From assembly GCA_963718525.1 (NCBI GenBank), contig OY970355.1:1608025-1672024 (forward strand): a DNA stretch of 64,000 nt, written 5' to 3'. Under the pieces are notes generated by a model. That model was not told the origin of the DNA. It worked only from the letters and a program-made list of their open reading frames with translations, and searched no databases. The position numbers and the translations under genes were made by a program. This DNA comes from Candidatus Dormiibacterota bacterium. Its GTDB lineage: Bacteria > Chloroflexota > Dormibacteria > Aeolococcales > Aeolococcaceae. This document shows, piece after piece, positions 5,809 through 29,053 of this stretch. Position 1 is the first letter of the stretch; each line of letters opens with the position of its first letter.

Positions 5809-7185
5809 TCAGCGGCCCTTGAGCGTGGCCACTGCAAAGACCGTGCGCGCCATGATGAGAAGGTCGAGAGCAACCGACTGTCGCTTGATGTAGTAAAGGT
5901 CGTACGAGAGCTTGATCGTGGATCCGCCAACATCGCCGGCATAGCCGTAGTTCACCTGCGCCCACCCTGTCAGGCCGGGACGCACCGACAGCCTCGTGTT
6001 GTAGTACGGGATGCTCTCGCGCAGCGTCTCGACGTACTGAGGTTGCTCGGGACGGGGACCCACCACGCTCATGTCGCCACGAAGGATGTTCCACGCCTGT
6101 GGCATCTCATCGAGATGCAGGCGGCGGAGCACCCCGCCGACCTTGGTGATGCGCGCATCATCTGCGGCGGTCCAGTGCAACTCCTCGCGAGTAGGAACGC
6201 GCATCGTTCGCAGTTTGACGATCTCGAAATGCCTGCCGAAATGGCCGACCCGGACCTGGCGGTGAAAGACCGGCCCGCGGTCCTCCATCGTGATCGCCAG
6301 CCAGACAAACGGCAGCAGGATCCCGAGCAGCACCAATCCGATCAGACCGGCGACGATGTCCACGACCCGCTTGAAAAGTGCGTACACGCGTGAGGTTTCC
6401 CCGCGCTGCTGCAACGAGAGCAGCCATGTCTGGCGGAGTCGCTCGACGAGGAGCCGACCCGTCAACTCCTCATACACGTCCGCGACCGATCGCACCACCA
6501 TTCCCCGGTCGTAGCACTCGACGAGCCCCTTGAAGAGGTCCGTGGGGAGGTCCTCCTCGGCTCCGAGCACGATCTGATCCGCTGCGCGTCGCGCCGCCGC
6601 CGTGGCCAGCAGCGTGCCTGCGTCCGGGTCGGCCGGATGGATGGTCCCGACCACGCGGTACAGCCCGGCCATCTGCGCGTCGACATCCGCCCAGACACGA
6701 TCGAGGATGTCTGCGTCGGCGACAAGGAGGATGCGCCCGGCAAAGATTGCTCGAGCGAACACGCGCCGGTAGAAGAGCCGCCAGCAGAGGATCGTGAGGG
6801 CGGCGACCGGAACCCAGATCAGGATCGTCGGGCGGGTCACCCCATAGGGCACTGCGAAGAACACCGCGAGCAGAGCAATCGTCTCGAGCGTCACGGTGGT
6901 TGCGACGACCCGGAAGATGCCGCGTACGCTGACGGCCGCGTGCAGATCGTAGGCATCGACCATCAGGGCGGCTGCGAGCCAGATCCCCGTGACGGTCCCG
7001 ACCCCGGCCCAGGGAATGGTCAGGGCGGCGTGCTGGATCGGCCCCGAGTGGAGGTTGAAGGCGAGAATCAGCGACGCCGCGACCAAAATGGAGTCGCCCG
7101 CTGCAAGGAGCAACTTCCGTTCAGAAGCGAGGATTCCCCGCCGGCCGGCCGCAACTGTGGCGCCCGGAACGTCCTGGGCGATCAT
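5809..7185 (-). CDS. undecaprenyl-phosphate sugar phosphotransferase (WbaP/CpsE-type initiating enzyme)
   Basis: 458 aa from ATG 7183-7185. N-terminal TM helices. C-terminal bacterial sugar transferase block GPVFHRQVRVGHFGRHFEIVKLRTM...DEMPQAWNILRGDMSVVGPRPE. The track ORF 5809-8388 is an artefactual extension that overlaps the opposite-strand GT2. Confidence 0.9.
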   Translation of the reverse strand: MIAQDVPGATVAAGRRGILASERKLLLAAGDSILVAASLILAFNLHSGPIQHAALTIPWAGVGTVTGIWLAAALMVDAYDLHAAVSVRGIFRVVATTVTLETIALLAVFFAVPYGVTRPTILIWVPVAALTILCWRLFYRRVFARAIFAGRILLVADADILDRVWADVDAQMAGLYRVVGTIHPADPDAGTLLATAAARRAADQIVLGAEEDLPTDLFKGLVECYDRGMVVRSVADVYEELTGRLLVERLRQTWLLSLQQRGETSRVYALFKRVVDIVAGLIGLVLLGILLPFVWLAITMEDRGPVFHRQVRVGHFGRHFEIVKLRTMRVPTREELHWTAADDARITKVGGVLRRLHLDEMPQAWNILRGDMSVVGPRPEQPQYVETLRESIPYYNTRLSVRPGLTGWAQVNYGYAGDVGGSTIKLSYDLYYIKRQSVALDLLIMARTVFAVATLKGR

Positions 7186-7254
7186 CGAAGCTAGCCTACA
7201 CGCTGAAGCTCCGCTCAACACCGGCGGACGAGACGGTACCGTGCCGGAGACACG

Positions 7255-8316
7255 ATGACTCCCACGAGTGCGCCGCCCGTGCCCGACGCCCCCTTCGTGA
7301 GCGTGGTCCTCCCGGTTCTCAACGAGGAGCGCTTCATCGAGGCGTGTCTGACCTCGGTGCTCACCCAGGACTATCCGCCCGATCGGTACGAGGTGATCGT
7401 CGCGGATGGTGGTTCGACTGATCGAACTCGAGAGATCGTTGCCGCCATCGCTGCACGAGACGCTCGGGTGCGCCTCATCGACAATCCGGGCCGGATGCAA
7501 GCCGCGGGGTTGAACCGAGCCATCGCAGCGAGCAGCGGCGACATCATCGCGCGTCAGGACGGTCACGCCGAATGGGCCTCTGATCACCTGCGCCGATCGG
7601 TGGCACTGCTGCTCGCGACCGGCGCCGACAACGTGGGCGGGCGCCAGGAAGCGATCGGCGACGGGGCGTCCGAACGTGCAATCGCACACGCGATGGGCTC
7701 GCCATTCGGCGTCGGCGGCGCTCGCTTCCGGTACTCGGAGGAGGAGGAGGAGATGCCGACCGTCTTCCTCGGCACGTTCCGCCGCAGTGCCTTCGAGCGA
7801 GTCGGTCTCTTTGACGAGGCGTACCCGCCGCACGAGGATTACGAGCTCAACGAACGCATCCGGTCGACGGGTGGTCGGATCATCTTCAGCCCGGAGATCC
7901 GAACTCGGTACCACGTACGCAGCGGGCTCACGGCCCTGGGCCGCCAGTACTACCGGTACGGGCGCGGCAAGGTGCGGGTGGCTCGCGCAAGCCCGGGCGT
8001 CATCCGTCCGTATCACCTGGCGGCACCGGCGCTGGTCCTGGCGATCCCGGTCATGGCCGCAATGGCGGTGACCGGTCAGGGTCGCCGTCTCGCCATCACG
8101 GGGGTCGGGGTCTACGCCACCGCCTGTGTGATCGCCGGCCAGCTGGCGGCTCGAACCGAGCCCCTCGGAGTACGCGCACGCACGTCCGCTGCCTTCGCGG
8201 TGATGCACGTCGGATGGGGATCGGGGTTCTGGGCGGGCGTCCTGGAGGGTGCCGCCGGCATTGCAACCGGTGGAGGCGCGCCGCCGAGCCTCGGCAGTCG
8301 CTCGGAAACGGCATAG
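7255..8316 (+). CDS. glycosyltransferase family 2 (membrane-anchored)
   Basis: 353 aa with a GGAGA SD. GT2 N-terminal pattern VSVVLPVLNEERFIEACLTSVLTQDYP...EVIVADGGSTD. Hydrophobic C-terminal third. Confidence 0.9.
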   Translation: MTPTSAPPVPDAPFVSVVLPVLNEERFIEACLTSVLTQDYPPDRYEVIVADGGSTDRTREIVAAIAARDARVRLIDNPGRMQAAGLNRAIAASSGDIIARQDGHAEWASDHLRRSVALLLATGADNVGGRQEAIGDGASERAIAHAMGSPFGVGGARFRYSEEEEEMPTVFLGTFRRSAFERVGLFDEAYPPHEDYELNERIRSTGGRIIFSPEIRTRYHVRSGLTALGRQYYRYGRGKVRVARASPGVIRPYHLAAPALVLAIPVMAAMAVTGQGRRLAITGVGVYATACVIAGQLAARTEPLGVRARTSAAFAVMHVGWGSGFWAGVLEGAAGIATGGGAPPSLGSRSETA

Positions 8317-8348
8317 GCCGGCGCCGCGACCCCGTATTGTTGGAGGCG

Positions 8349-9746
8349 ATGGCACCCAGCACCACGGCGTGGACGACGGATCGACCAAACCCGCTCTGCA
8401 TGGTGGGTGCCGGCTACGTCGGTCTCGTCACCGCCGCATGCCTGGCCGACGCCGGCGTCGACGTCAGGCTGCTGGATATCGATGCCGCCCGGCTCGACAT
8501 GCTCCGGAAGGGGAGGGCACCGATCCACGAGCCGATGCTCGACGAACTCCTCATGGAGGTCCTCGGAAACGGCAGGTTGGAGCTCCATCAGGATGCCGCG
8601 GTTGCCATGGACGGGGCTCAGATCATCATGCTCGCGGTCGGAACCCCGCCCCTGAGTGACGGCCGCGCGGACCTGACCCAGGTGCGCGCGGCGTTGAGTC
8701 AGGCGGTGCAGCACGCCGGCCCCGAGACGGTGATCGTGATCAAGAGCACGGTCCCGCCGGGCACCACGGCCTCGCTCCGAGCCCTCTGCCGCCGCAATGG
8801 GCGGAGCGTGCCCCTGGCGGTGTGCCCTGAGTTCCTCGCCGAGGGCAGCGCAGTGCGCGACTTCCGCCAGCCTCCGCAGGTGGTGATCGGTGGTGACGAT
8901 CACGACGCCTGCGAGCGCGTGGCGCGGCTCTTCGGCCATCTTGATGCCCCCATCCGGATCACCGACTCGACGAGCGCCGAGCTCATCAAATACGGGGTCA
9001 ACGCATTCCTCGCTTTGAAGATCTCGTTCATCAACGAGATGGCGCAGCTCTGCGAGTTCACCGGCGCCGACGTCAGCTCGGTGGCGGACGGGATCGGCAC
9101 CGACGAGCGCATCGGGCGTGCCTTCCTGGGCGCCGGCCTCGGTTTTGGGGGCTCGTGCTTCCCCAAGGACGTCCGCGCCCTCGACCAGGCGGCAAGCTAT
9201 CACGGGCAGAACTTCCAGCTGCTCCGCGCCGCGGTCGAGGTCAATCAGCAGGCGCGAAGCCGCTTCGTGGCCAAGATCCAGCGCGCGCTCAACGGCAAGC
9301 TCGCCAAACGCCGGATCGCAGTGCTCGGGCTGTCCTTCAAGCCCGGAACGGACGACGTCCGCCAGGCCGCCTCGATCGACGTCATCCGCCATCTCGAGGA
9401 CCTCGGCGCGTCGGTGGTGGCGAGCGACCCGGTGGCCATGGACAACGCGCGGCCGCTGCTCCCGCGTACCGAGCTGGTCGATGACCTCTATGCCTGCGTC
9501 ACCGGGGCAGACGCGGTGGTTGTGGTGACCGAGTGGCCGGAGTACGTCGGCCTTGACTGGGGCCGGGCGGCATCCCTCGTGCGGCGCCGGCTGGTCGTCG
9601 ACGGCCGGAATTGCCTGCCTGTGGATCAGCTGGTCGACCTCGGCTTCACCTACATCGGCGTCGGCCGGCCAATCCGTAAGCCGCGGGCGGTCCGGACCTC
9701 GAAGCCGGGTGCGACGCCCGAGGCGGAGCTCGTCGCCGTTCCATGA
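8349..9746 (+). CDS. ugd: UDP-glucose 6-dehydrogenase
   Basis: 465 aa from ATG 8349. Rossmann motif [19 protein letters not shown]. Catalytic-Cys context [12 protein letters not shown]. The 510-aa track ORF start lies inside the preceding GT2 gene. Confidence 0.9.
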
Positions 9747-12682: not shown

Positions 12683-13489
12683 TCAGCCTGCCCTGCGCAG
12701 CACAAAGTGGGTCAGGTGCGCGGGGCGGCGCGACGGCTGCTTGTAGCTGCTCAGCCCGGTCCGAATCACCCGGTATGACCAGCGCGTCTGCCTGAACGCC
12801 GATCGCCACTGGTTGAACGAGTAGACGATGTCACCGAGATACGGGTCGTAGAGAATCCCACTGCTGGAGATGGACGGGGACCAGGCAACGTAGCGACCCC
12901 GAACGGATTTGAGCGCGATGTCCATGCCGATGCGAGTCATCTTGTACAGGTATCGACCGGTCTCGAGCGGGGTTTCATTGAGCAGCACCATCGCACCCGA
13001 CGGCTTGACAACGCGGCGGCATTCGTCAAGAACGTCGGTCAGGCGCGGGGCGTGGTGGAGCGCGGAGCTTGCGACGATCAGGTCGTAGGTTCCGTCCTCG
13101 ACGAGCAATGGCGTGAACAGGGCGCGGATGGGCCGGATCTTGGATGCGACGCCGCCCATTCGCTCGACCACACCCGGAAGCATCATCTCGAGATTGCTCC
13201 GGCTCGAATCGAGCGCATCGATGCTCGCAACCTCGTCGAATCTCGACAGGTACGCTGCGAGCCAGCCCGTGCCGGCCGCGAGGTCGAGCACACGGATTCC
13301 ATGCCCGCGCATCAGAGTTCGCCACGGCACGAATTCGAGTGCGTCGAGAAAGTTCCACTCGTGCGTGACGGCATTGACCTGCTTCTCCGGGTCGCTCCAT
13401 ACTTCGGCGTGTTGCGGATAGAAGCGTGCGATGGCTGTCTCCCAGCTGCTCGCTTCACTGTCGGCCTGTTGCGCTATCCAGTCATCCAC
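12683..13489 (-). CDS. class I SAM-dependent methyltransferase
   Basis: VLDLAAGTGWLAAYL...YDLIVASSALHHAPRLTDVLDECRRVVKPSGAMVLLNE. I prefer the GTG start at 13489, which has a GGAGGA 11 nt upstream. The ORF is open to ATG 13582, but that start would overlap the divergent gene and its first 31 codons have lower GC3. Confidence 0.75.
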   Translation of the reverse strand: MDDWIAQQADSEASSWETAIARFYPQHAEVWSDPEKQVNAVTHEWNFLDALEFVPWRTLMRGHGIRVLDLAAGTGWLAAYLSRFDEVASIDALDSSRSNLEMMLPGVVERMGGVASKIRPIRALFTPLLVEDGTYDLIVASSALHHAPRLTDVLDECRRVVKPSGAMVLLNETPLETGRYLYKMTRIGMDIALKSVRGRYVAWSPSISSSGILYDPYLGDIVYSFNQWRSAFRQTRWSYRVIRTGLSSYKQPSRRPAHLTHFVLRRAG

Positions 13490-13565
13490 CGATGCGTCGG
13501 TCCTCCATCGAGATGGCGACGAGCACGCACTGCGCCCGTTCGTTTTCAGGTTAGCATTCGATGCA

Positions 13566-15347
13566 ATGGCCGTACCCGCCATCTTCGTTCACGACGCTGG
13601 CGATTCCCGGCTCACGGATCCCGGAAGTGTGGTCGCGCTCACGGCGACAGCCTTCGAGGCATGCTGCCGCGCCGGCCGGACGCCTGCGGTGCTGGCTGAT
13701 TACACGCAGCAGCCCGAGCTCTGCCGCAATCCCGACGCGTATCAGCGCTGGCAGATGGACTGGCTTGTACGTCTCGATGAGGCCTGCGGGCTCGGCGGCG
13801 TTGCTCGCTCGTGCGCGCAGCTGATCGTGCCGTCGGTCAACTCACTAGTGGTGACCGCGCGAATGCTGGCGGAAGCAGTCGACGCGCTCGCGCCGGACTC
13901 GATCACATACGTGGGCAGGGTCGGTCCGGTGGAAGCGACCGGTTACCACAATGGCCATCTGCAGTTCTGGCCGAGCCTCGGCGACGTCCCACTTGCGAGC
14001 CGCCTGCTGCCGTTGATAGCCGCAGCCCGGGGGTTGCGCTTTACGGCGTCCTCGGCGGGGGTAGTGCAGCCCGCGGCAATATCGACGGCGCCGCTGGCCG
14101 CCCGCCTCCGCCGCGCGCTGTCGCGCTCGCTTGGACCGTATCGCCGCGTCTATCGCGCGCACGGCGGCGGACAAGCCGGTCGCACCACGACACTGATGAC
14201 GTGGTACGCGGGCTACGGTGCAGAGCAATTCGCGGCCGATGAGCACACCACCGGACGCGACACCGCGTTCATCACGCGAGGTGCCACGTCGTTCCGGATC
14301 CTCGACCCCGGACTCCCGCCGCACCACGCACCGAGTCGTCGCATCGATCTGACGGTCCGGCCCGTGAGCGAGATTGCTCCCGCAGCAGCGGCGTTGCTCG
14401 CTGAGCTGGACGAATGGACGGAAGTCCCCGGTGCCGCACGCTTGCTCACGACCCGGCTGGCGGTCTACCTGCAGGGCATCTGCGTCGCGGTGTCGCGTGC
14501 CGTGCCTCGAGTACGCCGAGAGTTCGCGCGTTTCCGAGTCAGCCGGCTCGCGGCCGCGAATCCGAGCTCGCCCGAGGAGTTTGCCTGCCTGATAGCAGCG
14601 AAATCCGCCGGCATCCCTCGCGTGCTGGTGCAGCACGGTGACCATCTCCTCTCGTACGCATCGTGGTTGGTCACGCAGACGGTGGACTTCGACGAGTTTG
14701 CGGCGAGTGACCCCACCATGGAGGAGGAGTTCAACGCGGCTGCGGGCCGCCTCGGTGTTGTTGCCCCGAGGGTGACGTACTACGCACCCCGGATCGCCTC
14801 GCTTCCCAAGGGGTCGCAGCCGCGACACGCTGCGTCGGAAGCTGGGCGAGCGATCTGCTATGTGCCCTCGTTTCTCCTCGGCAACTCGAGATACGTCGGA
14901 GGGTGCAATTTCGACGATGCCTGGTACCACCGCTGGCATCTCCAGATCCTCGACCTGATGTGCTCGAGACCCGATCTCCGATTCATCTGGAAGGGGCTGC
15001 CGTCGAGCGACCAGGCCGTCGATCCCATACCCGCGCTCATCGCCGAGCGCAACGCCAGCAACATCGTTTTCGAAACGCGCCCGTTCATTGAGGTCATCGG
15101 CGAGGTGGCCCGGGTCTTCACCAACTCTCTGAGCACTGCGTTGTACGAGACGGTGCACATGGGTAAGCCGTTGCTGGCATTGACGTTCACGCGCTTCTGC
15201 GTGATTCGACCGTCGGCGGCCGGGCGCTTCGCGCCGGTGCTCCGTGCGTGTGATACGGAGCAGGAGGCGCTTGCGCGGCTCACCGAGTTTCTGGACGCGG
15301 ACCCCGACGCGTGGACGCTCCCGAAGAGCAGCCTGACTATTCCTTGA
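13566..15347 (+). CDS. hypothetical protein; C-terminal half resembles GT-B TagF/KpsS-type transferases
   Basis: 593 aa from ATG 13566. Blocks RVLVQHGDHL, AICYVPSF, RFIWKGLP and VFTNSLSTALYETVHMGKPLLAL recall the WHG / YaPT / ...S.. E...GKP pattern of TagF and capsule-synthesis GT-B enzymes. I could not place it in a confident family. Confidence 0.65.
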   Translation: MAVPAIFVHDAGDSRLTDPGSVVALTATAFEACCRAGRTPAVLADYTQQPELCRNPDAYQRWQMDWLVRLDEACGLGGVARSCAQLIVPSVNSLVVTARMLAEAVDALAPDSITYVGRVGPVEATGYHNGHLQFWPSLGDVPLASRLLPLIAAARGLRFTASSAGVVQPAAISTAPLAARLRRALSRSLGPYRRVYRAHGGGQAGRTTTLMTWYAGYGAEQFAADEHTTGRDTAFITRGATSFRILDPGLPPHHAPSRRIDLTVRPVSEIAPAAAALLAELDEWTEVPGAARLLTTRLAVYLQGICVAVSRAVPRVRREFARFRVSRLAAANPSSPEEFACLIAAKSAGIPRVLVQHGDHLLSYASWLVTQTVDFDEFAASDPTMEEEFNAAAGRLGVVAPRVTYYAPRIASLPKGSQPRHAASEAGRAICYVPSFLLGNSRYVGGCNFDDAWYHRWHLQILDLMCSRPDLRFIWKGLPSSDQAVDPIPALIAERNASNIVFETRPFIEVIGEVARVFTNSLSTALYETVHMGKPLLALTFTRFCVIRPSAAGRFAPVLRACDTEQEALARLTEFLDADPDAWTLPKSSLTIP

Positions 15348-15867: not shown

Positions 15868-15902
15868 TCGAGACCGCCGGTCACCGGGGCGGACTTGCCA
15901 TC

Positions 15903-16266
15903 ATGGCCGCCGATGAGCACTGCGGCGTGAACGGCGCGCACCGGCGTGCTGACGGCTCGGCGAGGATCCGGATCGGCTTCTACAGCCATGCTTCTCGCAT
16001 AGGCGGCGCTGAGACCTACGTTCGCGACGTGGTGCGCGGGATCGACACCGATGTCTTTGACGTACACGTCTTCGTTCCCCCATGGCGGGAGTTCATCGAT
16101 TTCCTGGGCATTCGTGAGCGGCGAGATCTGCACTTGCACGTGGTGAGGATAGTCGAGCCTGCAACCGCGTTTCCCGTACCGAGATCGGGAGCCGCTGTCG
16201 CGCCACGTCATCCCAGCTTCGGCACCGAGTTCGACTCCGTCGAGGATCCGCAGCCTCGCGCTTGCC
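15903..16266 (+). pseudogene. out-of-frame N-terminal segment of the downstream GT4 glycosyltransferase
   Basis: Frame-0 translation RIRIGFYSHASRIGGAETYVRDVVRGIDTDVFDVHVFV parallels the N-terminus of the paralogue (RVHYHTDCYWFGGSEIALLVHLKAAFEGGDVEPIFTY). The downstream GT4 ORF is in frame +1. Span 15903-17283 is 1381 nt (3n+1). Confidence 0.5.
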
Positions 16267-17283
16267 ATGCGTCTTCCGCCCTCGGCGTTGCGGCTCGGGC
16301 ACGATGCCCTGCGCTACGCGAGCCTCCCGGTGAACCGTCCCCGGCTCGAAGGCGCGTTCAAACGGTATGACCTGGACATCCTCCATGCCATCAACGGCGG
16401 CTATCCGGGAGCAACGAGCGCTCTCGCCGCGGTGCTTGCGGGGCGGACGACCGCCAGACACCGCATCATGACCGTCTGCAGTACGGCCATGCCCCGAAGC
16501 ATCCTGGAGCCGGTGGAGCGGCGCGTTGATCGAAGCCTGGCCGCCTCCCTCGACGCCGTGGTGGTACCGGCCGAACGGCCGGCAGGCGCGATGACGGCAC
16601 GCGGCTTTCCTCGAGAGATCATGGAGATCATCCCGTGGGGAGCGCGGTCCATCCCATACGACGTCGACGCCGATGCCCGCAGACGGCTGGGACTTCCGGA
16701 GACGGCACCGGTGATCGTCTGCCTGGCGAACTTCACTCCCACCAAGGGGCAGGCAGTGATCGTCGACGCGATGGCAGTCCTTACGGAGCGATTTCCCGGG
16801 ATCCGGGCGGTCCTTGCCGGGGATGGTCCCGAGCTGGCGGCCCTGCGCAAGCGCGCTGCCGCCCACGGGGTCGCAGGCAGCGTGCTGTTCCCCGGGTCCT
16901 TCAAGGAGCCATGGGATCTCCTCCGAGCGGCGGACGTGTTCGTGCTGGCCTCGGAGATCGAAGGCCTCCCGCTGGTGGTCCTCGAAGCCATGAGCCAGGG
17001 AGTGCCGGTCGTGGCGACGGACGTCGGCGGGATGCCTGAGGCAGTCATCGACGGCGTGACCGGGTTGCTCGTGTCACCTGGCGACCCGGCAGCCCTGGCC
17101 GCTGCGATCACAAGTATCCTGAGTGACCCCGCCGTGGCGTTGCGGATGCGACACGCCGCACTGGCTCGATTCGAGCAGCGATTCACCATGGAGCGAATGC
17201 TCGAATCTCACGCCGATCTCTACCACAGGCTCACGGGGAGCAGCGCCGGACCGCGGTCGCCGCGCCTAGACTGCCCCGGATGA
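16267..17283 (+). CDS. glycosyltransferase family 4 (lacks about 90 N-terminal residues in this frame)
   Basis: 338 aa. DILHAINGGYPGATSAL... and VLASEIEGLPLVVLEAMSQGVPVVATDVGGMPEAVIDGVTGLLVSPGD. Confidence 0.85.
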   Translation: MRLPPSALRLGHDALRYASLPVNRPRLEGAFKRYDLDILHAINGGYPGATSALAAVLAGRTTARHRIMTVCSTAMPRSILEPVERRVDRSLAASLDAVVVPAERPAGAMTARGFPREIMEIIPWGARSIPYDVDADARRRLGLPETAPVIVCLANFTPTKGQAVIVDAMAVLTERFPGIRAVLAGDGPELAALRKRAAAHGVAGSVLFPGSFKEPWDLLRAADVFVLASEIEGLPLVVLEAMSQGVPVVATDVGGMPEAVIDGVTGLLVSPGDPAALAAAITSILSDPAVALRMRHAALARFEQRFTMERMLESHADLYHRLTGSSAGPRSPRLDCPG

Positions 17284-20111: not shown

Positions 20112-20122
20112 CGGCACCGGTT

Positions 20123-20788: not shown

Positions 20789-20955
20789 AAACCGACCTCG
20801 TATCCCGTGAACCTCGCGATGTCCACGACGCCGACGCAGGACACGTCCCAGATAACGAGGACTACCAGCAGGACGAATATGAATGGCGCAAATCCGCGAC
20901 GCATCGTGGGAGTATTGCCCAAGGCTGGGCGCATCTCCTCGGAAGCGGTGCTCAT
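20782..20955 (-). CDS. small hypothetical membrane protein (57 aa, below the ORF-track cutoff)
   Basis: My translation is MSTASEEMRPALGNTPTMRRGFAPFIFVLLVVLVIWDVSCVGVVDIARFTGYEVGLC. GC3 is about 77 percent. Its ATG overlaps the flippase stop (ATGA), and its TAA overlaps the GTG of the next gene (GTGCTAA). Confidence 0.45.
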   Translation of the reverse strand: MSTASEEMRPALGNTPTMRRGFAPFIFVLLVVLVIWDVSCVGVVDIARFTGYEVGLC

Positions 20956-22472
20956 GCAACGGCGGGGACGTTAGCGCCTCGGCGCAGCAGCACGAGGGCG
21001 AGGAGTGCCCAAACAACCGCTGTGCCGGCGCATCGCAACAGGAGCGCGGCGACGTCGAGGTGGCCCGGACGCAAACCGCTCACCCCCATGTCGAGCACCA
21101 CGGTGACCGCGACGGCGACCAGCAGCACCAGCGTCATCTTCAGATACAGCGCACCGCGCTCGCGGACATGCCGATCCCAGATGTGCGGGGCGGCGGTCTC
21201 GAAGATGACCACTGCCACGAGGAACTGCACCCACACGTCATTCATCGCGACTGCCTGCGCGCCCCAACCGGTCCGCAGGGCGATCACGTTCGCGACAATG
21301 TTGACGACAAGTGCGCCGGTCCAGATGGACAGGTGCCGCTTCTGGCGATTCACCCGTTTCGAGTTGAGCACGAGCGAAGGGACGGTGGCGATGGGAAGGA
21401 GCAGGATGGTCAGCGCAAGGATGTCGAACAGGCGGATGGAGGGCGCGAAGCTCGGCGTGAACGCCATGACCAGCGGGGCAAATCCTGCCTGGCCAAGCCC
21501 GGCGATGGTCGCGGCGATGAGCGCCATCGCGATGGTGATTCGCTCGGCATGCCGAGCCCAGAGCGGTCCGCTCGCTCCGCGGCCGAGCTCGCGCCAGATG
21601 GTCGGCAGCAGGACCGCCTGGATACCGCCGATCGCGTTTGTGGCCACCGCGATGGGCGCGGCCGCGAACGTGTACAGGCCCAGCACGAACGACGACGACG
21701 CGATGGCGACCGACGAGCTGCCCACGAGGCGGTAGGCCCAGTAGACCTCCGCGAGCAGGCCGAGCGGGAATCCGACGCGCAGGAACGGGCGCGCAGCCCG
21801 CGTATCGAACGATGGTCGCAGTTGCAGGGGTGGGCGGAACACGAAGTAGATCGCGGCCGTCAGCAGGGATGCGAGCGCGGGCGCGACGAACATGCCGGGA
21901 GTTCCGATGGCTGCGACCAGCGCCACCAGCAGCACCGGCCCGAGGATCGCCTGCACCACGGCCACCTTGCCGACAACGTCGAATCGCGACCGGGCCGACC
22001 ACAGCGTGGAGAGGAAGCTGCTGCCGCTCGATGCGATCACCGCGACCGGCGCGAGGAAGAGCCCGAGCCGAAGCACCCCGGACGAAACGAAGAGCCCGAC
22101 AACCGCGAGTGCGATGCCGGGCAGCGCCGACACCACCAGCTCGAAGGAGAACCCGACGTTCTGGGCATGACGGGCCTCGCGCACCTCGCCGTGCGCGAGG
22201 TGGTCGATGACGGCGCGGATCGATCCCTCGAAGACCCCGCTGCGTATCAGCGTCGCATAGAGATAGATGAGCAGCACGAACTGGCCGTCGCCGTATCGAG
22301 ACGGTCCGAGCCAGTGCGCGGCAAGGAATCCCGCGCCGACGGCGAGCACCGAGCCGATCAGCGATGCTCCCGACAATCCCGAAGCGGAGCGCAGGATCCT
22401 CCGCAGACCGAGGCTCTCGAGCGGATCCGGCACGCCGGCCTCCACCGGGAGCTCGTCCGTGGTGGTCACCAT
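20952..22472 (-). CDS. polysaccharide flippase (Wzx/MOP family) with extra C-terminal helices
   Basis: 506 aa from ATG 22470-22472. A multi-helix protein with the usual Wzx-like layout. It overlaps the upstream GT2 stop by 7 nt. Confidence 0.85.
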   Translation of the reverse strand: MVTTTDELPVEAGVPDPLESLGLRRILRSASGLSGASLIGSVLAVGAGFLAAHWLGPSRYGDGQFVLLIYLYATLIRSGVFEGSIRAVIDHLAHGEVREARHAQNVGFSFELVVSALPGIALAVVGLFVSSGVLRLGLFLAPVAVIASSGSSFLSTLWSARSRFDVVGKVAVVQAILGPVLLVALVAAIGTPGMFVAPALASLLTAAIYFVFRPPLQLRPSFDTRAARPFLRVGFPLGLLAEVYWAYRLVGSSSVAIASSSFVLGLYTFAAAPIAVATNAIGGIQAVLLPTIWRELGRGASGPLWARHAERITIAMALIAATIAGLGQAGFAPLVMAFTPSFAPSIRLFDILALTILLLPIATVPSLVLNSKRVNRQKRHLSIWTGALVVNIVANVIALRTGWGAQAVAMNDVWVQFLVAVVIFETAAPHIWDRHVRERGALYLKMTLVLLVAVAVTVVLDMGVSGLRPGHLDVAALLLRCAGTAVVWALLALVLLRRGANVPAVA

Positions 22473-23479
22473 CGCCGCCGGCGCGTGGCATCGCCGATTC
22501 TCGCCGCCAGAGAGGGCGAGGCCAGGATGAGCGCTGCCTCGAGAACGAAGCGAGGCGATCCCGGCAGGCAAGCGAGCGCGGCGCCGCGCGCCTTCCACGG
22601 CCGGTTCGCCCGTGCATGCGCATAAGCCGCCGCCAGTGCCCTGCGGCGCCTCATCCAGCTGAGAGTCGCCGCCGCGACCTCCCGCTGCTGATCGTCACCG
22701 GCTTCCAGTACCGCGCGTTCGAGGACGCGCGAATACGTGTCGTAGATATCGGTGCGATGGCTGAGCCCTGTCGACTCCACCCGGTAGAGCAGGGTCGGCG
22801 CCGCGACCCCGTGCACTCTCAGGCCGGCCCGGATCATCCGTATCCACAGATCCCAGTCCTCCGCGCCCGAGACGCCGTCGCGAAAGCCGCCGGCGTCCTC
22901 ATATGCCGCGCGCGGAAAGAGCGCGCCGATCGAGACGAAGTTGTGCCGCAGGATGTCGAGCATCTGATGGTCAGGCGCCGGAATGGGAAAATGATCGTGC
23001 TGCGTCGCGCGACGCACGCCTTCGCCCGGATGCCATCTGAGCGCATCCGCGCACACTATTCCACCGAAGCGCGCCTGGAGTGCAGCCAGTGACGCGAGGT
23101 GATCGGGGAGCCAGACATCGTCGGCGTCGAGCAGTGCGATCAACGGCGTCTCGATGCGTGCGATCGCGGCGCGTCGCGCCGCAGCGGGGCCGGAGTTCCG
23201 CTCGAGGCGGACGACCTCGACCGGGAGCAGTCCCTGCCAGCGTCGGGCGAGCGCCGGCGTGTCGTCGTCGGAGTGATCGTCGCCGACCACAACGGCCGTG
23301 GGGGATAGCGTCTGAGCCGCGACTGATGCCAGCGCAGCGCCCAGCGTCCGCGTCGAGTTGTATGCGGGGATCACCACGGCGATGGGGCTGACGGGGCTCT
23401 GGGAGGCGATGCCGCCGGCGCGAGGCTGCCGTTGCGGCTCCGTCGTCACGGCCCCAGGGTACCCGTAGGAATCCGCCAT
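22466..23479 (-). CDS. glycosyltransferase family 2
   Basis: 337 aa. IAVVIPAYNSTRTLGAALASVAAQT...VVVGDDHSDDDT...LLDADDVWLPDHL. Confidence 0.9.
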   Translation of the reverse strand: MADSYGYPGAVTTEPQRQPRAGGIASQSPVSPIAVVIPAYNSTRTLGAALASVAAQTLSPTAVVVGDDHSDDDTPALARRWQGLLPVEVVRLERNSGPAAARRAAIARIETPLIALLDADDVWLPDHLASLAALQARFGGIVCADALRWHPGEGVRRATQHDHFPIPAPDHQMLDILRHNFVSIGALFPRAAYEDAGGFRDGVSGAEDWDLWIRMIRAGLRVHGVAAPTLLYRVESTGLSHRTDIYDTYSRVLERAVLEAGDDQQREVAAATLSWMRRRRALAAAYAHARANRPWKARGAALACLPGSPRFVLEAALILASPSLAARIGDATRRRRW

Positions 23480-24593
23480 GGGTTGCAGCCGGCGATCTCT
23501 ATCATCTCCGGTCGTGAGCGCCCATAGCTATGGAAGCCAGGAGTTCCGGATCGGCGACCGGCCGGTCGGACCGGGCCATCCGACCTATGTCATCGCCGAA
23601 GCGGGCTCGAACCACAACCGAGACCTCGACACGGCCTTCGGGCTCATCGACGCCGCGGCGAATGCCGGCGCCGATGCTGTCAAATTCCAGACCTACACCG
23701 CCGAGGGCCTGTACTCGCGCCGCACACCGGACATGTCCTACCTCAAGGACCAGGGGCTCGTGGGTGAGCGCGAATCGGTCTGGGACCTGATCAAGCGGGT
23801 CGAGATTCCCTGGGAATGGCATGGTGATCTGGCCGCCCACGCCAGGAAGGCCGGGGTCGCGTTCCTCTCGACGCCGTTCCAGGAGGAGGCCGTCGACCTC
23901 CTGGACCAGATCGGCGTTCCCGCTTTCAAGATCGCCTCGTACGAGGTCAACCATCTTCCGCTCATCGAGCGTGCGGCTCGCACCGGAAAACCTCTGCTCA
24001 TCTCCACCGGGATGGCATCGCTCGGCGACATCGAACGCGCCCTCGACACCGCGACCGCCGCCGGGGCGCGCGACCTGATGGTGCTGCACTGCGCGGTGAA
24101 CTACCCGCCGCGCTTCGAGGATCTCAACCTCCGCGCCATCCCCACGCTCCGGGCAGCCTTCCAGATACCGATCGGATGGTCCGATCACACTCGCGGGCAC
24201 ACGGCAGACGTCGTCGCGGTCGCCCTCGGCGCATGCGCGATCGAGAAGCACTTCACCCTGAGCAGGAACCAGGAGGGACCGGACCATCCTTTCGCGCTCG
24301 AGCCGGACGAGCTCACGGCCATGGTGCAGGCCATCCGCGAAACCGAGGCATCGCTCGGGTCAAGCGTGAAGCGTGTGACCAAGGCGGAGGCCGAGATGTT
24401 CCGGCTCGGACGTCGCAGCATCGTCGTGAGCCGAGACGTTGCCGCGGGCGCCGCACTGACGCGAGCGGATCTTGCGATCAAGCGTCCCGGTTTCGGCATC
24501 CCGGTCCACGACATCGATCAGGTGGTCGGCAGGCACGTCACCCGCTCCATGGAGGAGGACGAGGTGCTCCAGTGGGACGATCTCGTCCGGTAG
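23478..24593 (+). CDS. pseI: pseudaminic acid synthase (NeuB family)
   Basis: FRIGDRPVGPGHPTYVIAEAGSNHNRDLDTAFGLIDAAANAGADAVKFQTY, with a C-terminal SAF domain. The start may instead be GTG 23514, because ATG 23478 overlaps the divergent start codon within CATG. Confidence 0.88.
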   Translation: MGCSRRSLSSPVVSAHSYGSQEFRIGDRPVGPGHPTYVIAEAGSNHNRDLDTAFGLIDAAANAGADAVKFQTYTAEGLYSRRTPDMSYLKDQGLVGERESVWDLIKRVEIPWEWHGDLAAHARKAGVAFLSTPFQEEAVDLLDQIGVPAFKIASYEVNHLPLIERAARTGKPLLISTGMASLGDIERALDTATAAGARDLMVLHCAVNYPPRFEDLNLRAIPTLRAAFQIPIGWSDHTRGHTADVVAVALGACAIEKHFTLSRNQEGPDHPFALEPDELTAMVQAIRETEASLGSSVKRVTKAEAEMFRLGRRSIVVSRDVAAGAALTRADLAIKRPGFGIPVHDIDQVVGRHVTRSMEEDEVLQWDDLVR

Positions 24594-24616
24594 CGACCGG
24601 TCGTGATCGCCCCCGC

Positions 24617-25069
24617 GTGACGCTGCGCGCGGCTCGCGGGGACGATGCCAGCCTGGTCAGGGCCTGGCGCAACGACGCCGACGCGGTCCGCTTCAGTGTG
24701 AGCGCCCGCCCCGTGTCGGAGGGCGAGCACGCTCGCTGGTTCGCAACAGCGCTTGCCGATCCTCGGATACAACTCTGGGTCGCGGAGGAGAACGGGGTCC
24801 CGGTGGGTCAGGTGCGAGCCGATCTCGTCGGCGATTCGGCGGTCTTCTCGATCGCCGTTGCGGCTTCCGCGCGAGGCCGTGGGGTAGGTCAGCGGATGCT
24901 CCGGCTCGCCCTGGAGGAGATCGAGCGGCAGCACGCTGTCACCACCATGACGGCCGTGACGCACCCCGACAACCTGGCCTCGATACACGCCTTTGAGCGG
25001 GTGGGGTTCCGCCGCCGTGAGGCGTCCGAGGGGGGCTTTGTCGTCCTCGAACTGACGTTGGACTCGTAG
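24617..25069 (+). CDS. pseH: GNAT N-acetyltransferase (PseH-like)
   Basis: About 150 aa from GTG 24617. VTLRAARGDDASLVRAWRND...ARGRGVGQRMLRLALEE (acetyl-CoA motif A). The start is uncertain. The 297-aa track ORF overlaps pseI out of frame. Confidence 0.72.
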   Translation: MTLRAARGDDASLVRAWRNDADAVRFSVSARPVSEGEHARWFATALADPRIQLWVAEENGVPVGQVRADLVGDSAVFSIAVAASARGRGVGQRMLRLALEEIERQHAVTTMTAVTHPDNLASIHAFERVGFRRREASEGGFVVLELTLDS

Positions 25070-25087: not shown

Positions 25088-25873
25088 TCACGTGGCCGCG
25101 GCAGGGTCCTCGCCACGGCGCGCAGCGTCTCGCTGGGCGCGATACCGCTCATCTCTCGCGGGCAGTCCACTCTGATCCCACAGCGTTGGATCAAACTCGA
25201 AATACGCGACCACAGCCGCAAGATGGGGCGGTGGTGCGGCCGGAAGCGCCATGAGGATCGTCCGGATCCGCTCGAGGTCTTCCGGCACATCCACGGTCAG
25301 GCGCATGGACGAAAGATCTCGGTCGTTGACCATGTTGACGGTGCGGTACTCGCCGGAATGCTCGCGCAGCCGTGCGGTCACGTGTTCACGGTGGTAGTCG
25401 AGGACCGACTCGACGTCGAGCCGCCGCAGACATTCCGCGGTGAGCACCTCGACGTCGTAACCCTGCGGGTAGGTCGGTGGAAGCTCGTTGCTGGCGTAGT
25501 CGGCGTCGGCCGAAGTGCGCATGCGCACCAGACCGTCGACGAGCTCCGGGTCGACGAGGGGGCAGTCCGACGTGACCCGGATCACCACGTCCGCGCCGTG
25601 CTCTTCCGCGGCAAGCACGTACCGGCTCAAGACGTCGGCGACCGCACCTCGGGTGACCCTGGCTCCCAGTGCACCCGCGAGGTCCGCGACAACGTCATCC
25701 CCGGGTTCGACGGTGGTCGCAACCACGACGTCGTCGATCGTCTCCGCCATCGAGACGCGCTCGATGACGTGCGCGAGCATCGGCTTGCCGCAGAGGTCGG
25801 CGAGGACCTTGCCCGGGAACCGGGTCGATCCCACGCGAGCCTGGATCACCGCAACATTTCGGAGCGCGGACAT
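25088..25873 (-). CDS. pseF: pseudaminic acid cytidylyltransferase (SpsF/NeuA-like)
   Basis: 261 aa from ATG 25871-25873. VAVIQARVGSTRFPGKVLADLCGKPMLAHVIERV...RVTSDCPLVDPELVD. TGATG junction with pseG. Confidence 0.82.
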   Translation of the reverse strand: MSALRNVAVIQARVGSTRFPGKVLADLCGKPMLAHVIERVSMAETIDDVVVATTVEPGDDVVADLAGALGARVTRGAVADVLSRYVLAAEEHGADVVIRVTSDCPLVDPELVDGLVRMRTSADADYASNELPPTYPQGYDVEVLTAECLRRLDVESVLDYHREHVTARLREHSGEYRTVNMVNDRDLSSMRLTVDVPEDLERIRTILMALPAAPPPHLAAVVAYFEFDPTLWDQSGLPARDERYRAQRDAARRGEDPAAAT

Positions 25874-26856
25874 CAGGCGGCGTCGACGCGCGCGAGGCGC
25901 CGCACCGCCTCTGCGACCCGCCACGCGCCGCGACCGTCCACCAGCGCGCGTCCCCGTTCCGCCATCACATCGCAGCGTGCCGGGTCGTCGAGGAGCTTGA
26001 TGCACTCAGCGGCGAGATCCTCCGAATCGACCACGACTGCACAACCGGCTCGGCCAAGAGCGGCCGCTTGAGCGGATTGGTTTGGCACGGCGTCGTTGAT
26101 CACCGCGGGGATGCCGACACACGCGGCCTGCACGGCGGTGGTGCCGGCCGCACCGACATAGATGGTCGTTTCAGCGAGCGCCTCGGCCAGGCTTGGCGGC
26201 GCGACCAGCAGGTGCAGACGCGGCTGGTCGACCGGGGAGGCGCCCTGCGCGTCCGGTCCGACAACTCTGAGGACCTCGAGGGACGCGTCCTCGTTGAGCA
26301 GCCGGGTGCTGACGTTCGCTGCCATGCCGTCGATGTCGGTCGCTCCAGTCGATACCAACACGGTCCTTCGAGCTCGCCCGCGGCGCAGCACCGTCTCGCG
26401 GGCCTCCGCGAACGCTGAGCGAATCAGCGCATAAGCGGCGCCACCCAGGAAGGCGGTCGCGCCCGCGGGACGCAGGCTCTCACCGCCGGGCGATGGGTTG
26501 ATGCCGAGGTCGCAGTCGGCGGTGTGGCCAAGATCGTCAACCACAGTCAGGGGGACGCGCCGGCGCAGCCGCTCCTGCATACCGGCATCGAAGACGTACC
26601 CGTCGAGTACGAGGAGATCCGGTGCTCGACCCGCAGCGAGCACGGAGGCGACCCGATCCGGCGCTGCGCCGCGAGCCGCCACCACAGCATGGCCTCGATC
26701 CTCGACACGTCTGCGCAGCTCGACGTCGTCGTCTGGAAGCACCACGGATACCGAGGTGTCCGGTCGCAGTGCATCAGCGAGGGCGAGCATCCGCTCGAGG
26801 TGGCCAAGTCCGACGCCGGATCCGCAATCCGGAGCCAGCAGGGCTCGCAGGATCAT
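25873..26856 (-). CDS. pseG: UDP-2,4-diacetamido-2,4,6-trideoxy-beta-L-altropyranose hydrolase (PseG, GT28-like)
   Basis: 327 aa from ATG 26854-26856. DCGSGVGLGHLERMLALADAL... and C-terminal GAAGTTAVQAACVGIPAV. ATGA overlap with pseC. Confidence 0.78.
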   Translation of the reverse strand: MILRALLAPDCGSGVGLGHLERMLALADALRPDTSVSVVLPDDDVELRRRVEDRGHAVVAARGAAPDRVASVLAAGRAPDLLVLDGYVFDAGMQERLRRRVPLTVVDDLGHTADCDLGINPSPGGESLRPAGATAFLGGAAYALIRSAFAEARETVLRRGRARRTVLVSTGATDIDGMAANVSTRLLNEDASLEVLRVVGPDAQGASPVDQPRLHLLVAPPSLAEALAETTIYVGAAGTTAVQAACVGIPAVINDAVPNQSAQAAALGRAGCAVVVDSEDLAAECIKLLDDPARCDVMAERGRALVDGRGAWRVAEAVRRLARVDAA

Positions 26857-28055
26857 GGAACGATCTGATGCGTCGACGCCCATGCCTGGATCCGGCGCAG
26901 TGCAACCACGACGTCGTCCTGGTCGGATGCCGTCATCGTTGGGAAGAGCGGCAGCGTCACCAACCGTTCGCACATCGCCTCGGCTCGAGGCGCCGTGCCG
27001 GGGACGCCGCCGCGTGCCCGATAGAGCGACAGCAGGTGCACCGCCGGGTAATGCAGCGTTGCCTCGATACCCTCCGCCCGCAGCGCGTCGATGATCCAGT
27101 CGCGCTCACAACCGAACACCTCCGGGTCGATCTCGACTGGATAGATGTGCCATGCGCTTCTGCGACCCTCTGGACGCGGTGGGAGGCCGATGCCCGGAAT
27201 CTCGCTGAGCATCGCGTCGTACCGATCGGCCATCTCGCTGCGTTCAGCGACGACGTCGTCGAGGCGATGCAGCTGCGAGATGCCGAGCGCGGCTTGCAGC
27301 GTGGTCATACGGTGGTTGTCGCCGAGCATGATGACGTCGTATTTCCAGAGCGTGCCGGTCCGCTCGTCCGCGGTGCTGGTCATCCCATGGTTGCGCAGCT
27401 TGCGAATGCGGTCCGCCACTGCGCCGTCCGAAGTCAGGCAAGCGCCACCCTCTCCGGTGGTGATCTGTTTCACCGGATGAAAGCTCAGCGTGGTGATGTC
27501 CGCAAGCGATCCCACGGGCCGTCCGTTGTGGCTTGCTCCGAGCGAGTGGGCGCTGTCGGCGACCACCGGGAGCGGCCGCGGCAGCGCCGCCTTCAGCGCA
27601 CCGATATCCGACGGAAGTCCCGAATAGTCGACGGTGATCACAGCCTTGGTCCGCGGAGTCACGTTGCGCGCCACCGATTCAGGATCGAGGCATCGATCCT
27701 CACCGACATCGGCGAACACCGGAGTCCCACCGGCACGGAGCACAGCGTTGGCTGTCGCGACGAACGTCAGCGGCGTCGTGATCACCTCGTCCCCTGGTCC
27801 GATGCCGAGTGTGAGCACCGCGAGGTCGAGCGCCGCGCTGCCGTTGGTGAGCGCGATCGCGTGGTCGGCTCTGCCCCGTGCCGCGAGCGCGTGCTCGAAG
27901 TCGGCGATGGCCGCACCACCGGTGAGCGTGCCCGAGCGAAGTGCCGCGACCACGGCGTTGACGTCGGCGTCGTCGAGCGCGTGACGGCCGTAGGGGAGGG
28001 GGTGAAGCCGGATCGGCGTGCCCCCGGCGATCGCCGGGGGACTCGTGATGCTCAC
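26853..28055 (-). CDS. pseC: UDP-4-amino-4,6-dideoxy-N-acetyl-beta-L-altrosamine transaminase (DegT/DnrJ/EryC1 family)
   Basis: About 400 aa from GTG 28053-28055 (GTGA overlap with the pseB stop). LTNGSAALDLAVLTLGIGPGDEVITTPLTFVATANA... and PLP-lysine context SFHPVKQITTGEGG. Confidence 0.88.
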   Translation of the reverse strand: MSITSPPAIAGGTPIRLHPLPYGRHALDDADVNAVVAALRSGTLTGGAAIADFEHALAARGRADHAIALTNGSAALDLAVLTLGIGPGDEVITTPLTFVATANAVLRAGGTPVFADVGEDRCLDPESVARNVTPRTKAVITVDYSGLPSDIGALKAALPRPLPVVADSAHSLGASHNGRPVGSLADITTLSFHPVKQITTGEGGACLTSDGAVADRIRKLRNHGMTSTADERTGTLWKYDVIMLGDNHRMTTLQAALGISQLHRLDDVVAERSEMADRYDAMLSEIPGIGLPPRPEGRRSAWHIYPVEIDPEVFGCERDWIIDALRAEGIEATLHYPAVHLLSLYRARGGVPGTAPRAEAMCERLVTLPLFPTMTASDQDDVVVALRRIQAWASTHQIVP

Positions 28056-29053
28056 CCCGCGTCGGCCGGCGCCTCGGCCGGCCATTTGGCCAGGAGATCG
28101 CGAAGTTCGCCGACGTCGAGCCACTCCGTGTTGCTGTCGCTGCTGTAGTGGAACTCCTCGGCGACCCGCGCCCCTTCAGTGGTTGCGCGAGCGCCCCAGA
28201 AAGGATGTTCGGGAACGACGACGTAACACCAGCCCATGTCGAATGTATGCCTCGCCTCGTCCGATGTGATCAGGACCTCGTGCAACTTTTCGCCCGGCCT
28301 GATGCCGGTGTAGCGGATCGACACTCCGGGCGCGATCGCTTCCGCAAGGTCAACGACGCGCGTGCTGGGGATTTTGGGGATGAAAACCTCGCCACCCGCC
28401 ATCGTTGCGACGCAGTCGGCGACAAGTTGCACCGCCTGATCAAGCGTGATCCAGAAGCGGGTCATGCGCTCGTCGGTCACCGTCAGTTCGCCGGTGTCCG
28501 CCTGGCTGCGAAAGAGCGGCACCACGCTGCCGCGGGAACCGACCACGTTGCCGTAGCGAACGCACGAGAGGCGTACGTCATTCGGACCGGCGTACACGTT
28601 GGCCTGGACGAACAGCTTTTCAGCACAGAGTTTGGTGGCGCCGTACAGGCTCGCAGGACTCACCGCCTTGTCGGTGCTGAGCGCCACAGCGCGCGAGATA
28701 CCTGCCTCGATGCACACCTCGGCAACGTTCTGAGTCCCGAGGATGTTGGTCTGCACCGCCTCAAACGGGTTGTATTCGCAGGCGGGCACCTGCTTCATGG
28801 CGGCGGCGTGGATGACGATGTCCACGCCGTCGACGGCTCGCCGCAGCCTTTGGTGATCGCGTACGTCGCCGATCAGGAAGCGGAGCCGGTCGTCGCCGAA
28901 TGATCGCTGCATCTCCGACTGCTTGAGCTCGTCGCGGCTGAAGATGCGGATCGTCTTGGGATTCCATCGGGACAGCGCGGTGCGCGTGAAGTGATGGCCA
29001 AAGGAGCCGGTGCCCCCGGTCAGCAGGATTGTGCGCCCCTCGAAATAGTTCAA
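28052..29053 (-). CDS. pseB: UDP-N-acetylglucosamine 4,6-dehydratase (inverting)
   Basis: 333 aa, TTG start with a GAGGA SD 7 nt upstream. ILLTGGTGSFG...IFSRDELKQSEM...GDVRD...VIHAAAMKQVPACEYNPFEAVQTNILGTQNV...STDKAVSPASLYGATKLCAEK. Confidence 0.92.
   Translation of the reverse strand: MNYFEGRTILLTGGTGSFGHHFTRTALSRWNPKTIRIFSRDELKQSEMQRSFGDDRLRFLIGDVRDHQRLRRAVDGVDIVIHAAAMKQVPACEYNPFEAVQTNILGTQNVAEVCIEAGISRAVALSTDKAVSPASLYGATKLCAEKLFVQANVYAGPNDVRLSCVRYGNVVGSRGSVVPLFRSQADTGELTVTDERMTRFWITLDQAVQLVADCVATMAGGEVFIPKIPSTRVVDLAEAIAPGVSIRYTGIRPGEKLHEVLITSDEARHTFDMGWCYVVVPEHPFWGARATTEGARVAEEFHYSSDSNTEWLDVGELRDLLAKWPAEAPADAG

Follow-up and report, generated by a model that had tools for sequence, protein, structure and literature searches.

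A LIC12162-like GT-B protein in a Dormibacteria glycan island is a candidate CMP-pseudaminic acid transferase

Which enzyme attaches pseudaminic acid (Pse) to the glycan of a Dormibacteria island that encodes Pse biosynthesis? The window that we analyzed is a 64,000-nucleotide stretch from Candidatus Dormiibacterota bacterium (assembly GCA_963718525.1, contig OY970355.1, positions 1,608,025 to 1,672,024 of the forward strand), and it contains genes for making cytidine monophosphate (CMP)-activated Pse. A first-pass annotation of the window suggested that the missing transferase might be the 593-residue protein encoded at 13566..15347 (+). Our analysis supports this candidate. The protein is predicted to be soluble, to have a glycosyltransferase B (GT-B) fold, and to belong to a superfamily related to the LIC12162 proteins. 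From its fold, its gene context, and the way in which it is exchanged for other genes in related genomes, we think that it is probably a CMP-Pse transferase, one that lacks the His-Pro (HP) motif of sialyltransferases; it is the gene context that points to CMP-Pse as the donor.

Members of this family are physically linked to genes for Pse biosynthesis. We looked up five homologues (36–69% identity), and all five have neuB within 10 kilobases (kb), while four also have other Pse-type genes nearby (CMP-sugar synthetase, DegT, or PseB-like dehydratase). We also tabulated neighborhoods with tblastn, for 18 loci from genomes and 22 loci from metagenomes. Dormibacteria-type loci keep the gene order of the window, with pseI 7–12 kb downstream of the family gene. 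The 13 more divergent loci (35–50% identity; L003, L005, L006, L007, L018, L023, L024, L026, L048, L050, L052, L053, and L054) have about 10 different gene orders, and at least two pse genes lie within 10 kb in all 13. Overall, family members are 0–12 kb from pseI and other pse genes. The gene for the flippase Wzx is 0–0.3 kb from the family gene in L003, L005, L006, L007, and L026. No other glycosyltransferase was detected beside the family gene in L003, L023, L050, or L052–L054.

A sample of 301 genomes from the class gave a similar picture: the family is present in 10 of them and a true neuB in about 36. Nine of the 10 family-positive genomes encode true NeuB on the same contig, 1–12 kb away, and the contig of the tenth stops 2.4 kb past the family gene. 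(A phylum-level sample of 401 genomes was too sparse, as it yielded only the window's own genome, so we used the class-level sample.) The first-pass annotation had suggested checking for co-occurrence, and the distribution of the family is indeed tied to nonulosonic acid genes, both in these nine of 10 genomes and in the 13 of 13 divergent loci. More distant members of the superfamily have similar neighbors. P0146 is encoded directly downstream of a pseB-C-F-G-I-H operon (L033), P0122 comes after a PseG-like gene, and one archaeal member has neuB on one side and a flippase on the other.

Related genomes that lack the family encode other putative transferases. Among 29 sampled genomes of the window's genus, 19 lack the family, and all 19 have a true neuB. 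We searched 38 genomes for KpsS-like and TagF-like proteins and inspected their loci in two genomes, G400 and G497. In the pse loci of both, a KpsS-like protein adjoins pseI (PF05159, 21.7 bits versus a cut-off of 20) and a TagF-like protein adjoins the flippase (PF04464, 30 bits versus a cut-off of 22.1). Both proteins are present in all 19 of the genus genomes without the family. Of the nine genomes with the family, G593 alone has these proteins as well, and its two cassette types are in separate pse loci. Both proteins are also missing from the two genomes that lack neuB. This exclusivity is what we would expect to see if the family filled the same role in an alternative cassette.

We made several other observations about these cassettes. 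One Dormibacteria genus has two alternative pse cassettes, with either a LIC12162-like protein, a family 4 glycosyltransferase (GT4), and methyltransferases, or else the KpsS-like and TagF-like proteins. In G400, genes for an FkbM methyltransferase, an ATP-grasp protein, and an amidohydrolase are near the KpsS-like/TagF-like cassette (L027 and L028; the corresponding loci of G497 are L029 and L030). On contig C2 of G593, the family gene occurs a third time, in fragments, along with neuB. Also, an open reading frame (ORF) that adjoins pseH in G400 (L028:2710-4491) would encode 593 amino acids and so could be taken for a paralogue by its length. It has no similarity to the family and no domains, and it is probably a spurious frame.

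The predicted structure is that of a GT-B protein. With an alignment of 39 family members (A1) as input, AlphaFold2 modeled the full-length protein with a predicted local distance difference test (pLDDT) score of 87.1 and a predicted template modeling (pTM) score of 0.90. Comparing this model to the Protein Data Bank (PDB) with Foldseek gave 102 matches at E ≤ 1e-3, and the best 50 of the 102 are all GT-B-fold proteins. These 50 include BshA (E = 9.7e-9), MurG, GT4 enzymes, plant UDP-glycosyltransferases, LpxB, a UDP-N-acetylglucosamine (UDP-GlcNAc) 2-epimerase, and a capsule multienzyme, with target-normalised TM scores of 0.21–0.57 (about 0.5 for the best match). By structure comparison, the model has the two Rossmann-like alpha/beta lobes and the cleft that define the GT-B superfamily. 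The predicted fold marks the protein as GT-B but leaves the choice of donor undecided.

Residues 286–593 (14421..15347, +) form a core that is a compact, two-lobed GT-B unit by itself and is the best-conserved portion in distant relatives. Modeled separately, the core has a pLDDT of 85.2 and a pTM of 0.82, and Foldseek gave 210 matches at E ≤ 1e-3. It aligns over about 310 columns with entire UDP-GlcNAc 2-epimerases (3beo: E = 2.7e-9, TMq 0.56), and GT4 enzymes come next. So the structural check that had been proposed, which asked about assignment to a non-transferase family, returned a glycosyltransferase-type GT-B fold, though the core by itself matches 2-epimerases best, and these have the same fold without being transferases. 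The N-terminal region (residues 1–285; 13566..14420, +) is an alpha/beta domain with helical insertions, as judged by secondary structure and pLDDT, and is probably the acceptor side. Its invariant residues in A1 are D45, W62, W66, P110, P136, G139, and P142. The claim that the N-terminal 300 amino acids match nothing recognizable did not hold up, as this region is confidently modeled and can be aligned to the N-terminal part of LIC12162-like proteins; also, four of the 29 proteins in an alignment of distant relatives (A3, below) have weak matches to Glyco_transf_4, a model of the GT4 N-terminal domain.

What kind of GT-B protein is it? Direct searches of Pfam, NCBIfam, and the PDB sequences (the last by phmmer) gave no match to the sequence at E ≤ 10. 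Searching the PDB with the family profile gave nothing meaningful either (best E = 0.44 for A1), and the profile from A3 was likewise unhelpful. By these searches the protein deserves the label "orphan" that it had been given. Overall it does not: it has full-length homologues in 78 clusters, nearly all of about 590–620 amino acids and all without protein names, as well as a remote kinship to LIC12162. The closest homologue whose source has a name is from a Candidatus Dormibacteria metagenome-assembled genome (MAG). As judged by sequence comparison, the family is a conserved group in Dormibacteria and Actinomycetota.

The kinship to LIC12162 emerges from wider searches. An exhaustive search with a threshold of E ≤ 1e-3 yielded 367 representative clusters. 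Its remote matches, of about 600–640 amino acids, bear weak signals of TIGR04331 or PF27859 (LIC12162). From the window's protein, phmmer reaches PF27859-type proteins at E = 1e-26 to 1e-13. A3 is made up of 29 proteins related to P0122, the majority of which are PF27859-positive, and aligning A1 to A3 with hhalign gave a probability of 100 and E = 7.8e-61, with 560 aligned columns and about 19% identity. Given this full-length homology to PF27859-positive proteins, the family belongs to LIC12162 in the wide sense. Within the family itself, a faint PF27859 signal appears in only two of the 78 homologue clusters, and TIGR04331 has weak matches in five of the 39 family members (best E = 0.0016, below the cut-off of 225 bits). 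The window's protein does not match TIGR04331 at E ≤ 10, and nothing in the whole genome does. When the A3 hidden Markov model was run against the window's own genome, the sole match was this ORF (150 bits, E = 7.1e-44), so it is the genome's single member of the LIC12162-like superfamily. On these alignments, the protein represents a previously unrecognized branch of the LIC12162-like putative transferases, divergent in its sequence and in its motifs.

(One of the family's loci, L010 from DATLRB010000040.1, is from a MAG labeled Candidatus Saccharimonadales, yet the contig is syntenic with the Dormibacteria island, with 72–89% protein identity. Its coordinates appear to match genome G549, which is placed in the window's genus. 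The NCBI label or the binning of L010 is probably wrong.)

Three conserved motifs stand out. QHGDH (residues 356–360; 14631..14645, +) follows a beta-strand and is invariant in all 39 family members. In the 29 LIC12162-like counterparts, H-G is invariant at this position and is followed by a consensus D. We propose that QHGDH is a catalytic or substrate-binding loop. WKGLP (residues 475–479; 14988..15002, +) has an invariant W475, K476, and P479, and "FVWKGLP" is common to the family and the LIC12162-like proteins. It lies at the site of the HP motif in the KpsS-like and TagF-like proteins: in the hhalign alignments, the sister-genome enzymes have "RIHP" and "KCHP" opposite it, and the family has Leu or Phe in place of the His. 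Other invariant residues in A1 are D486, S523, and R548; D520 and T524-x-x-Y-E528 are nearly so.

The third motif is in a donor-lobe helix (residues 520–528; 15123..15149, +) and reads N-S-L-S-T-A-L-Y-E in the window, with a family consensus of D-F-P-S-T-A-L-Y-E. The window's protein carries N520 and L522. At least 90% of the 39 sequences have Asp at 520, the matching Asp is invariant in A3, and Pro is conserved at 522. Codon 520 of the window's gene (15123–15125) is AAC. Within the 90% identity cluster, N520 occurs in three members and D520 in two, from different assemblies. Because both recur, N520 looks like a polymorphism that persists in populations and not like an error.

The gene itself appears to be intact. 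Frame +1 of 13566–15347 translates to 593 residues and a stop, as the first-pass annotation had it, and the four sequence blocks that it quoted (VLVQHGDHL, ICYVPSF, FIWKGLP, and FTNSLSTALYETVHMGKPLLAL) are all present in the translation. The G+C content by codon position is 0.67/0.54/0.78, which is the same pattern as in other genes of the window (about 66% G+C overall). The frame is already open from 13431, which would give 638 amino acids. A start at 13566 is likely because most homologues begin with MA[VA]PAIFVHD (in A1). None of its segments is hydrophobic enough to span a membrane (maximum KD19 = 1.33), and its isoelectric point is about 8. A divergently transcribed methyltransferase gene lies upstream, and its longest ORF, 12683–13582 (−), overlaps the start at 13566 by 17 nucleotides. 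Its orthologues are annotated as about 30 residues shorter (268 amino acids in L001), which implies that the true intergenic region is probably about 80 nucleotides. This gap probably holds a divergent promoter.

Turning to the rest of the island, the annotation's description of a complete CMP-Pse pathway agrees with our domain searches. PseB (28052..29053, −), the inverting 4,6-dehydratase, and PseI (23478..24593, +), a pseudaminic acid synthase of the NeuB family, exceed the cut-offs of their NCBIfam models (TIGR03589, 477.3 bits versus 407.75, and TIGR03586, 343.9 bits versus 340.25; PseI also matches PF03102 at 1.8e-92). For three other enzymes, the best NCBIfam match is the expected one but falls below the cut-off: the aminotransferase PseC (26853..28124, −; TIGR03588, 368 bits; PF01041, 4.1e-106), the UDP-sugar hydrolase PseG (25873..26973, −; TIGR03590, 4.1e-32, its sole NCBIfam match), and the N-acetyltransferase PseH (24590..25069, +, start approximate; TIGR03585, along with GNAT domains). 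The PseF-type CMP-sugar synthetase (25088..26005, −) is a CTP_transf_3 protein (PF02348, 3.8e-32), which the PseF model matches weakly. The genome has just one true neuB.

The island also encodes a Wzx-type flippase (20952..22598, −; PF13440) and a Bac_transf protein (5809..8388, −; PF02397, 2.8e-58), which is an initiating polyprenyl-phosphate sugar-phosphate transferase and is syntenic in Dormibacteria loci. Other genes in the island encode a UDP-sugar dehydrogenase, an epimerase, two GT4 proteins, four methyltransferases, and an ArnC-like family 2 glycosyltransferase (GT2); a second GT2 (22466-23479) abuts pseI. The GT4 gene that adjoins our candidate (15900–17283, +) is split over two frames: residues 1–112 of its orthologue align to 15900–16235, and residues 105–448 align to 16213–17244 in the other frame. 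The cause, near 16213–16235, is a frameshift or else an indel introduced by the assembly. The ArnC/PgfS-like polyprenyl-phosphate GT2 (19143–20351, −) and a 713-amino-acid DUF6541 membrane protein (3655–5796, −) suggest that the same island encodes a second, extracytoplasmic glycosylation step.

The first-pass annotation saw no Maf or other known nonulosonate transferase in the island. This extends to the whole genome, a single contig of 3.34 Mb, for PF01973 (Maf), PF05159 (KpsC/S), PF07922 (GT52), PF04464 (TagF), and TIGR04331, none of which has a match; GT38, GT42, and GT80 were not searched.

Several of our results weigh against our proposal, and some of them favor particular alternatives. 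Two motifs of bacterial GT-B sialyltransferases are missing. There is no invariant His-Pro in the 39 sequences of A1, where the residue before Pro479 is Leu or Phe, and the D/E-D/E-G motif is not conserved in A1 either; among conserved acidic motifs, QHGDH and FDDAW come closest to it. The similarity to the sister-genome enzymes is also slight. Comparing the family to the KpsS-like proteins with hhalign gave E = 0.067, which is not significant, and the comparison to the TagF-like proteins gave E = 0.0015 over just 69 columns of the donor lobe, which we also graded as not significant. The resemblance to TagF and KpsC/S that had been noticed in the C-terminal half therefore stands as a generic similarity of the donor lobe and not as membership in those families, and the protein has no match to PF05159, PF04464, or PF01973 (Pfam, E ≤ 10). 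As for co-occurrence, the association of the family with neuB in the class sample (Fisher p = 1.7e-8) has no phylogenetic correction, and within the genus, presence or absence of the family and of neuB show no association (Fisher p = 1.0). Since presence and absence are uninformative at the genus level, the signal is carried by physical linkage and by the exclusivity of the cassettes. Finally, in the literature on LIC12162, TIGR04331, and pseudaminyltransferases we found no functional study of the family or of any other member of the LIC12162 superfamily, with an annotation as the sole mention, and papers on Leptospira gave no gene-level information on LIC12162.

We considered that the protein might be a transferase of the same pathway with another donor (a UDP- or GDP-sugar, or a phospho-substituent), or that it might act on a Pse-containing intermediate, with the Pse transferase elsewhere in the island. 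The most plausible such transferase is the GT2 at 22466–23479, as its homologue adjoins pseI in all of the Dormibacteria-type loci that reach that far, as well as in L006, L007, L018, and L026. The absence of the HP motif and the fold matches, which are to generic GT-B enzymes that use UDP-sugars, would fit with another donor. So would P0229 (L035), which has an Epimerase_2 protein, a UDP-sugar dehydrogenase, and a flippase as its neighbors but no neuB in the surrounding 10 kb; some superfamily members may use a different donor or acceptor. On the other hand, neither GT2 nor GT4 homologues were detected in L003, L023, L050, or L052–L054, and the GT2 homologue was also undetected in L005, L024, and L048, while the family and the pse genes stay together in all of these. 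We know of no GT2 or GT4 enzyme that uses a CMP-nonulosonate. Furthermore, sister genomes swap the family for KpsS-like and TagF-like proteins, which are types with precedents as transferases of Pse, 3-deoxy-D-manno-oct-2-ulosonic acid (Kdo), or legionaminic acid (Leg) (PMC12887879, PMC5420450). We consider another donor to be unlikely.

It is less likely that the family transfers Pse but that the window's copy is impaired, or that this genome is losing the island; we view this as quite improbable. The copy does have Asn at a near-invariant Asp and Leu at a conserved Pro, the adjoining GT4 gene is split, and degraded copies of the family occur together with neuB in G593:C2 and G535. But the ORF is full length and keeps all of the other invariant residues, N520 recurs in three independent assemblies alongside D520, and the split in the GT4 gene could be an error in the assembly of the MAG. 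The best structural matches of the core raise another alternative, which is that the protein is a nucleotide-sugar 2-epimerase or a hydrolase-type enzyme that modifies a precursor. The top 37 matches are UDP-GlcNAc 2-epimerases and not sialyltransferases (E = 2.7e-9 to 2.4e-7, TMq 0.46–0.58), and enzymes with the NeuC/LegG/WecB-like fold do occur in nonulosonate pathways. However, GT4 enzymes are only about 100-fold worse for the core and come out on top for the full-length model, and the protein has no match to Pfam's Epimerase_2 at E ≤ 10. All six steps of Pse synthesis, including PseG, are already encoded both here and in L033, beside a superfamily member, which also rules out the family as a replacement for PseG. 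The superfamily member in L035 has a genuine Epimerase_2 gene next to it, and the family gene is paired with a flippase in many loci. We see very little chance that the protein is an epimerase or hydrolase.

If the protein is a CMP-Pse transferase, as we propose, then it would be a soluble, cytoplasmic, peripheral GT-B enzyme. It would take the CMP-Pse made by the products of pseB-C-H-G-I-F, which are 8–15 kb downstream, and move Pse onto a lipid-linked oligosaccharide, which the Bac_transf protein would initiate and the neighboring GT4 and GT2 enzymes would lengthen. The Pse-bearing product would then be a substrate for flipping by Wzx. Given that HP and D/E-D/E-G are absent and that WKGLP lies opposite HP, we suggest K476/R548 and the HGD loop as their substitutes: H357 and D359 of QHGDH might form the catalytic loop, and K476 and R548 might bind phosphate or carboxylate in place of the HP histidine. 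S523, T524, and E528 might contribute to nucleotide binding.

We also considered a broader proposal, which is that the LIC12162-like superfamily is an unrecognized family of CMP-nonulosonate transferases (for Pse and related sugars) in Chloroflexota, Actinomycetota, and archaea, with an HGD loop and a Lys/Arg pair and without HP and D/E-D/E-G, and that it would be a new CAZy family. We are evenly divided as to whether this is correct. Few enzymes that attach Pse or Leg are known (Maf, PseE, FlmG, KpsS1, and the TagB-like enzymes of Tannerella), and many nonulosonate clusters have no transferase. If the broader proposal is true, it would explain many orphan pse or leg clusters in soil bacteria and archaea, including genes that are annotated only as "LIC12162 family transferase." It would also provide a motif-divergent class of catalysts for CMP-sugars and new enzymes for making Pse glycoconjugates. 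And since related Dormibacteria swap their pse-linked transferase cassettes, much as in O-antigen or capsule loci, these genomes offer a natural experiment for assigning functions.

How does the candidate compare to characterized systems? Maf, PseE, and FlmG are nonulosonate transferases for flagellin and are the other proposed users of CMP-Pse. They belong to a different fold family (MptE-like for Maf), and our candidate is in a Wzx-dependent glycan island, not among flagellar genes. The solved structures that are closest to the core are UDP-GlcNAc 2-epimerases (the WecB/MnaA/NeuC fold), at 10–19% identity. Unlike these, the candidate has an additional N-terminal domain of 285 residues and, as mentioned above, no match to Epimerase_2 (PF02350); its gene context also speaks for a transferase.

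Bacterial GT-B sialyltransferases (GT38, GT52, GT80, and GT100) share the GT-B fold, and their donors are CMP-nonulosonates, as we propose for our candidate. However, they have both HP and D/E-D/E-G, which the candidate lacks, and there are no sialyltransferases among the best 50 Foldseek matches that were listed. K476-x-x-P479 does recall what we take to be the K-x-H-P of PmST1.

The TagB-like enzymes of Tannerella forsythia, Tanf_01245 and TFUB4_00887, transfer Pse or Leg derivatives, as knockout and complementation showed (PMC5420450). They are soluble GT-B proteins that add a terminal nonulosonate to a lipid-assembled glycan, and their genes are beside CMP-nonulosonate genes (PMC5420450). 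They are shorter, at about 445 amino acids, and have DXD, D/E-D/E-G, and HP motifs that our family lacks; the TagF-like gene in the sister pse loci that we inspected is their parallel. KpsS1 of Acinetobacter baumannii is a KpsS-related, retaining transferase of Pse5Ac7Ac, classified as GT118, with experimental support as reported in PMC12887879, which cites Walklett 2024. Like the Kdo transferases KpsS, KpsC, and WbbB, it is a GT-B-type enzyme that builds a surface polysaccharide from an ulosonic acid activated with CMP (PMC12887879); for our candidate, such a donor is a proposal. The Capsule_synth domain (PF05159) marks the KpsC/KpsS/KpsS1 type, which comprises GT107 and GT118. In the sister-genome pse loci that we inspected, a KpsS-like gene holds the equivalent place, and the HP histidine of the KpsS type is replaced by Leu in our candidate.

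The LIC12162 family transferases (TIGR04331/PF27859) are the closest relatives. At about 19% identity, our candidate is distant from them and is far from reaching the cut-offs curated for the named families. Still, the two are homologous over their full length of about 590–640 amino acids, and both have the motifs HGD, YxP, DxWY, FVWKGLPxSD..PIP, and DxPSTxxYE. They also share their usual location, beside neuB, genes for CMP-sugar synthetases, and a flippase (PMC6679464).

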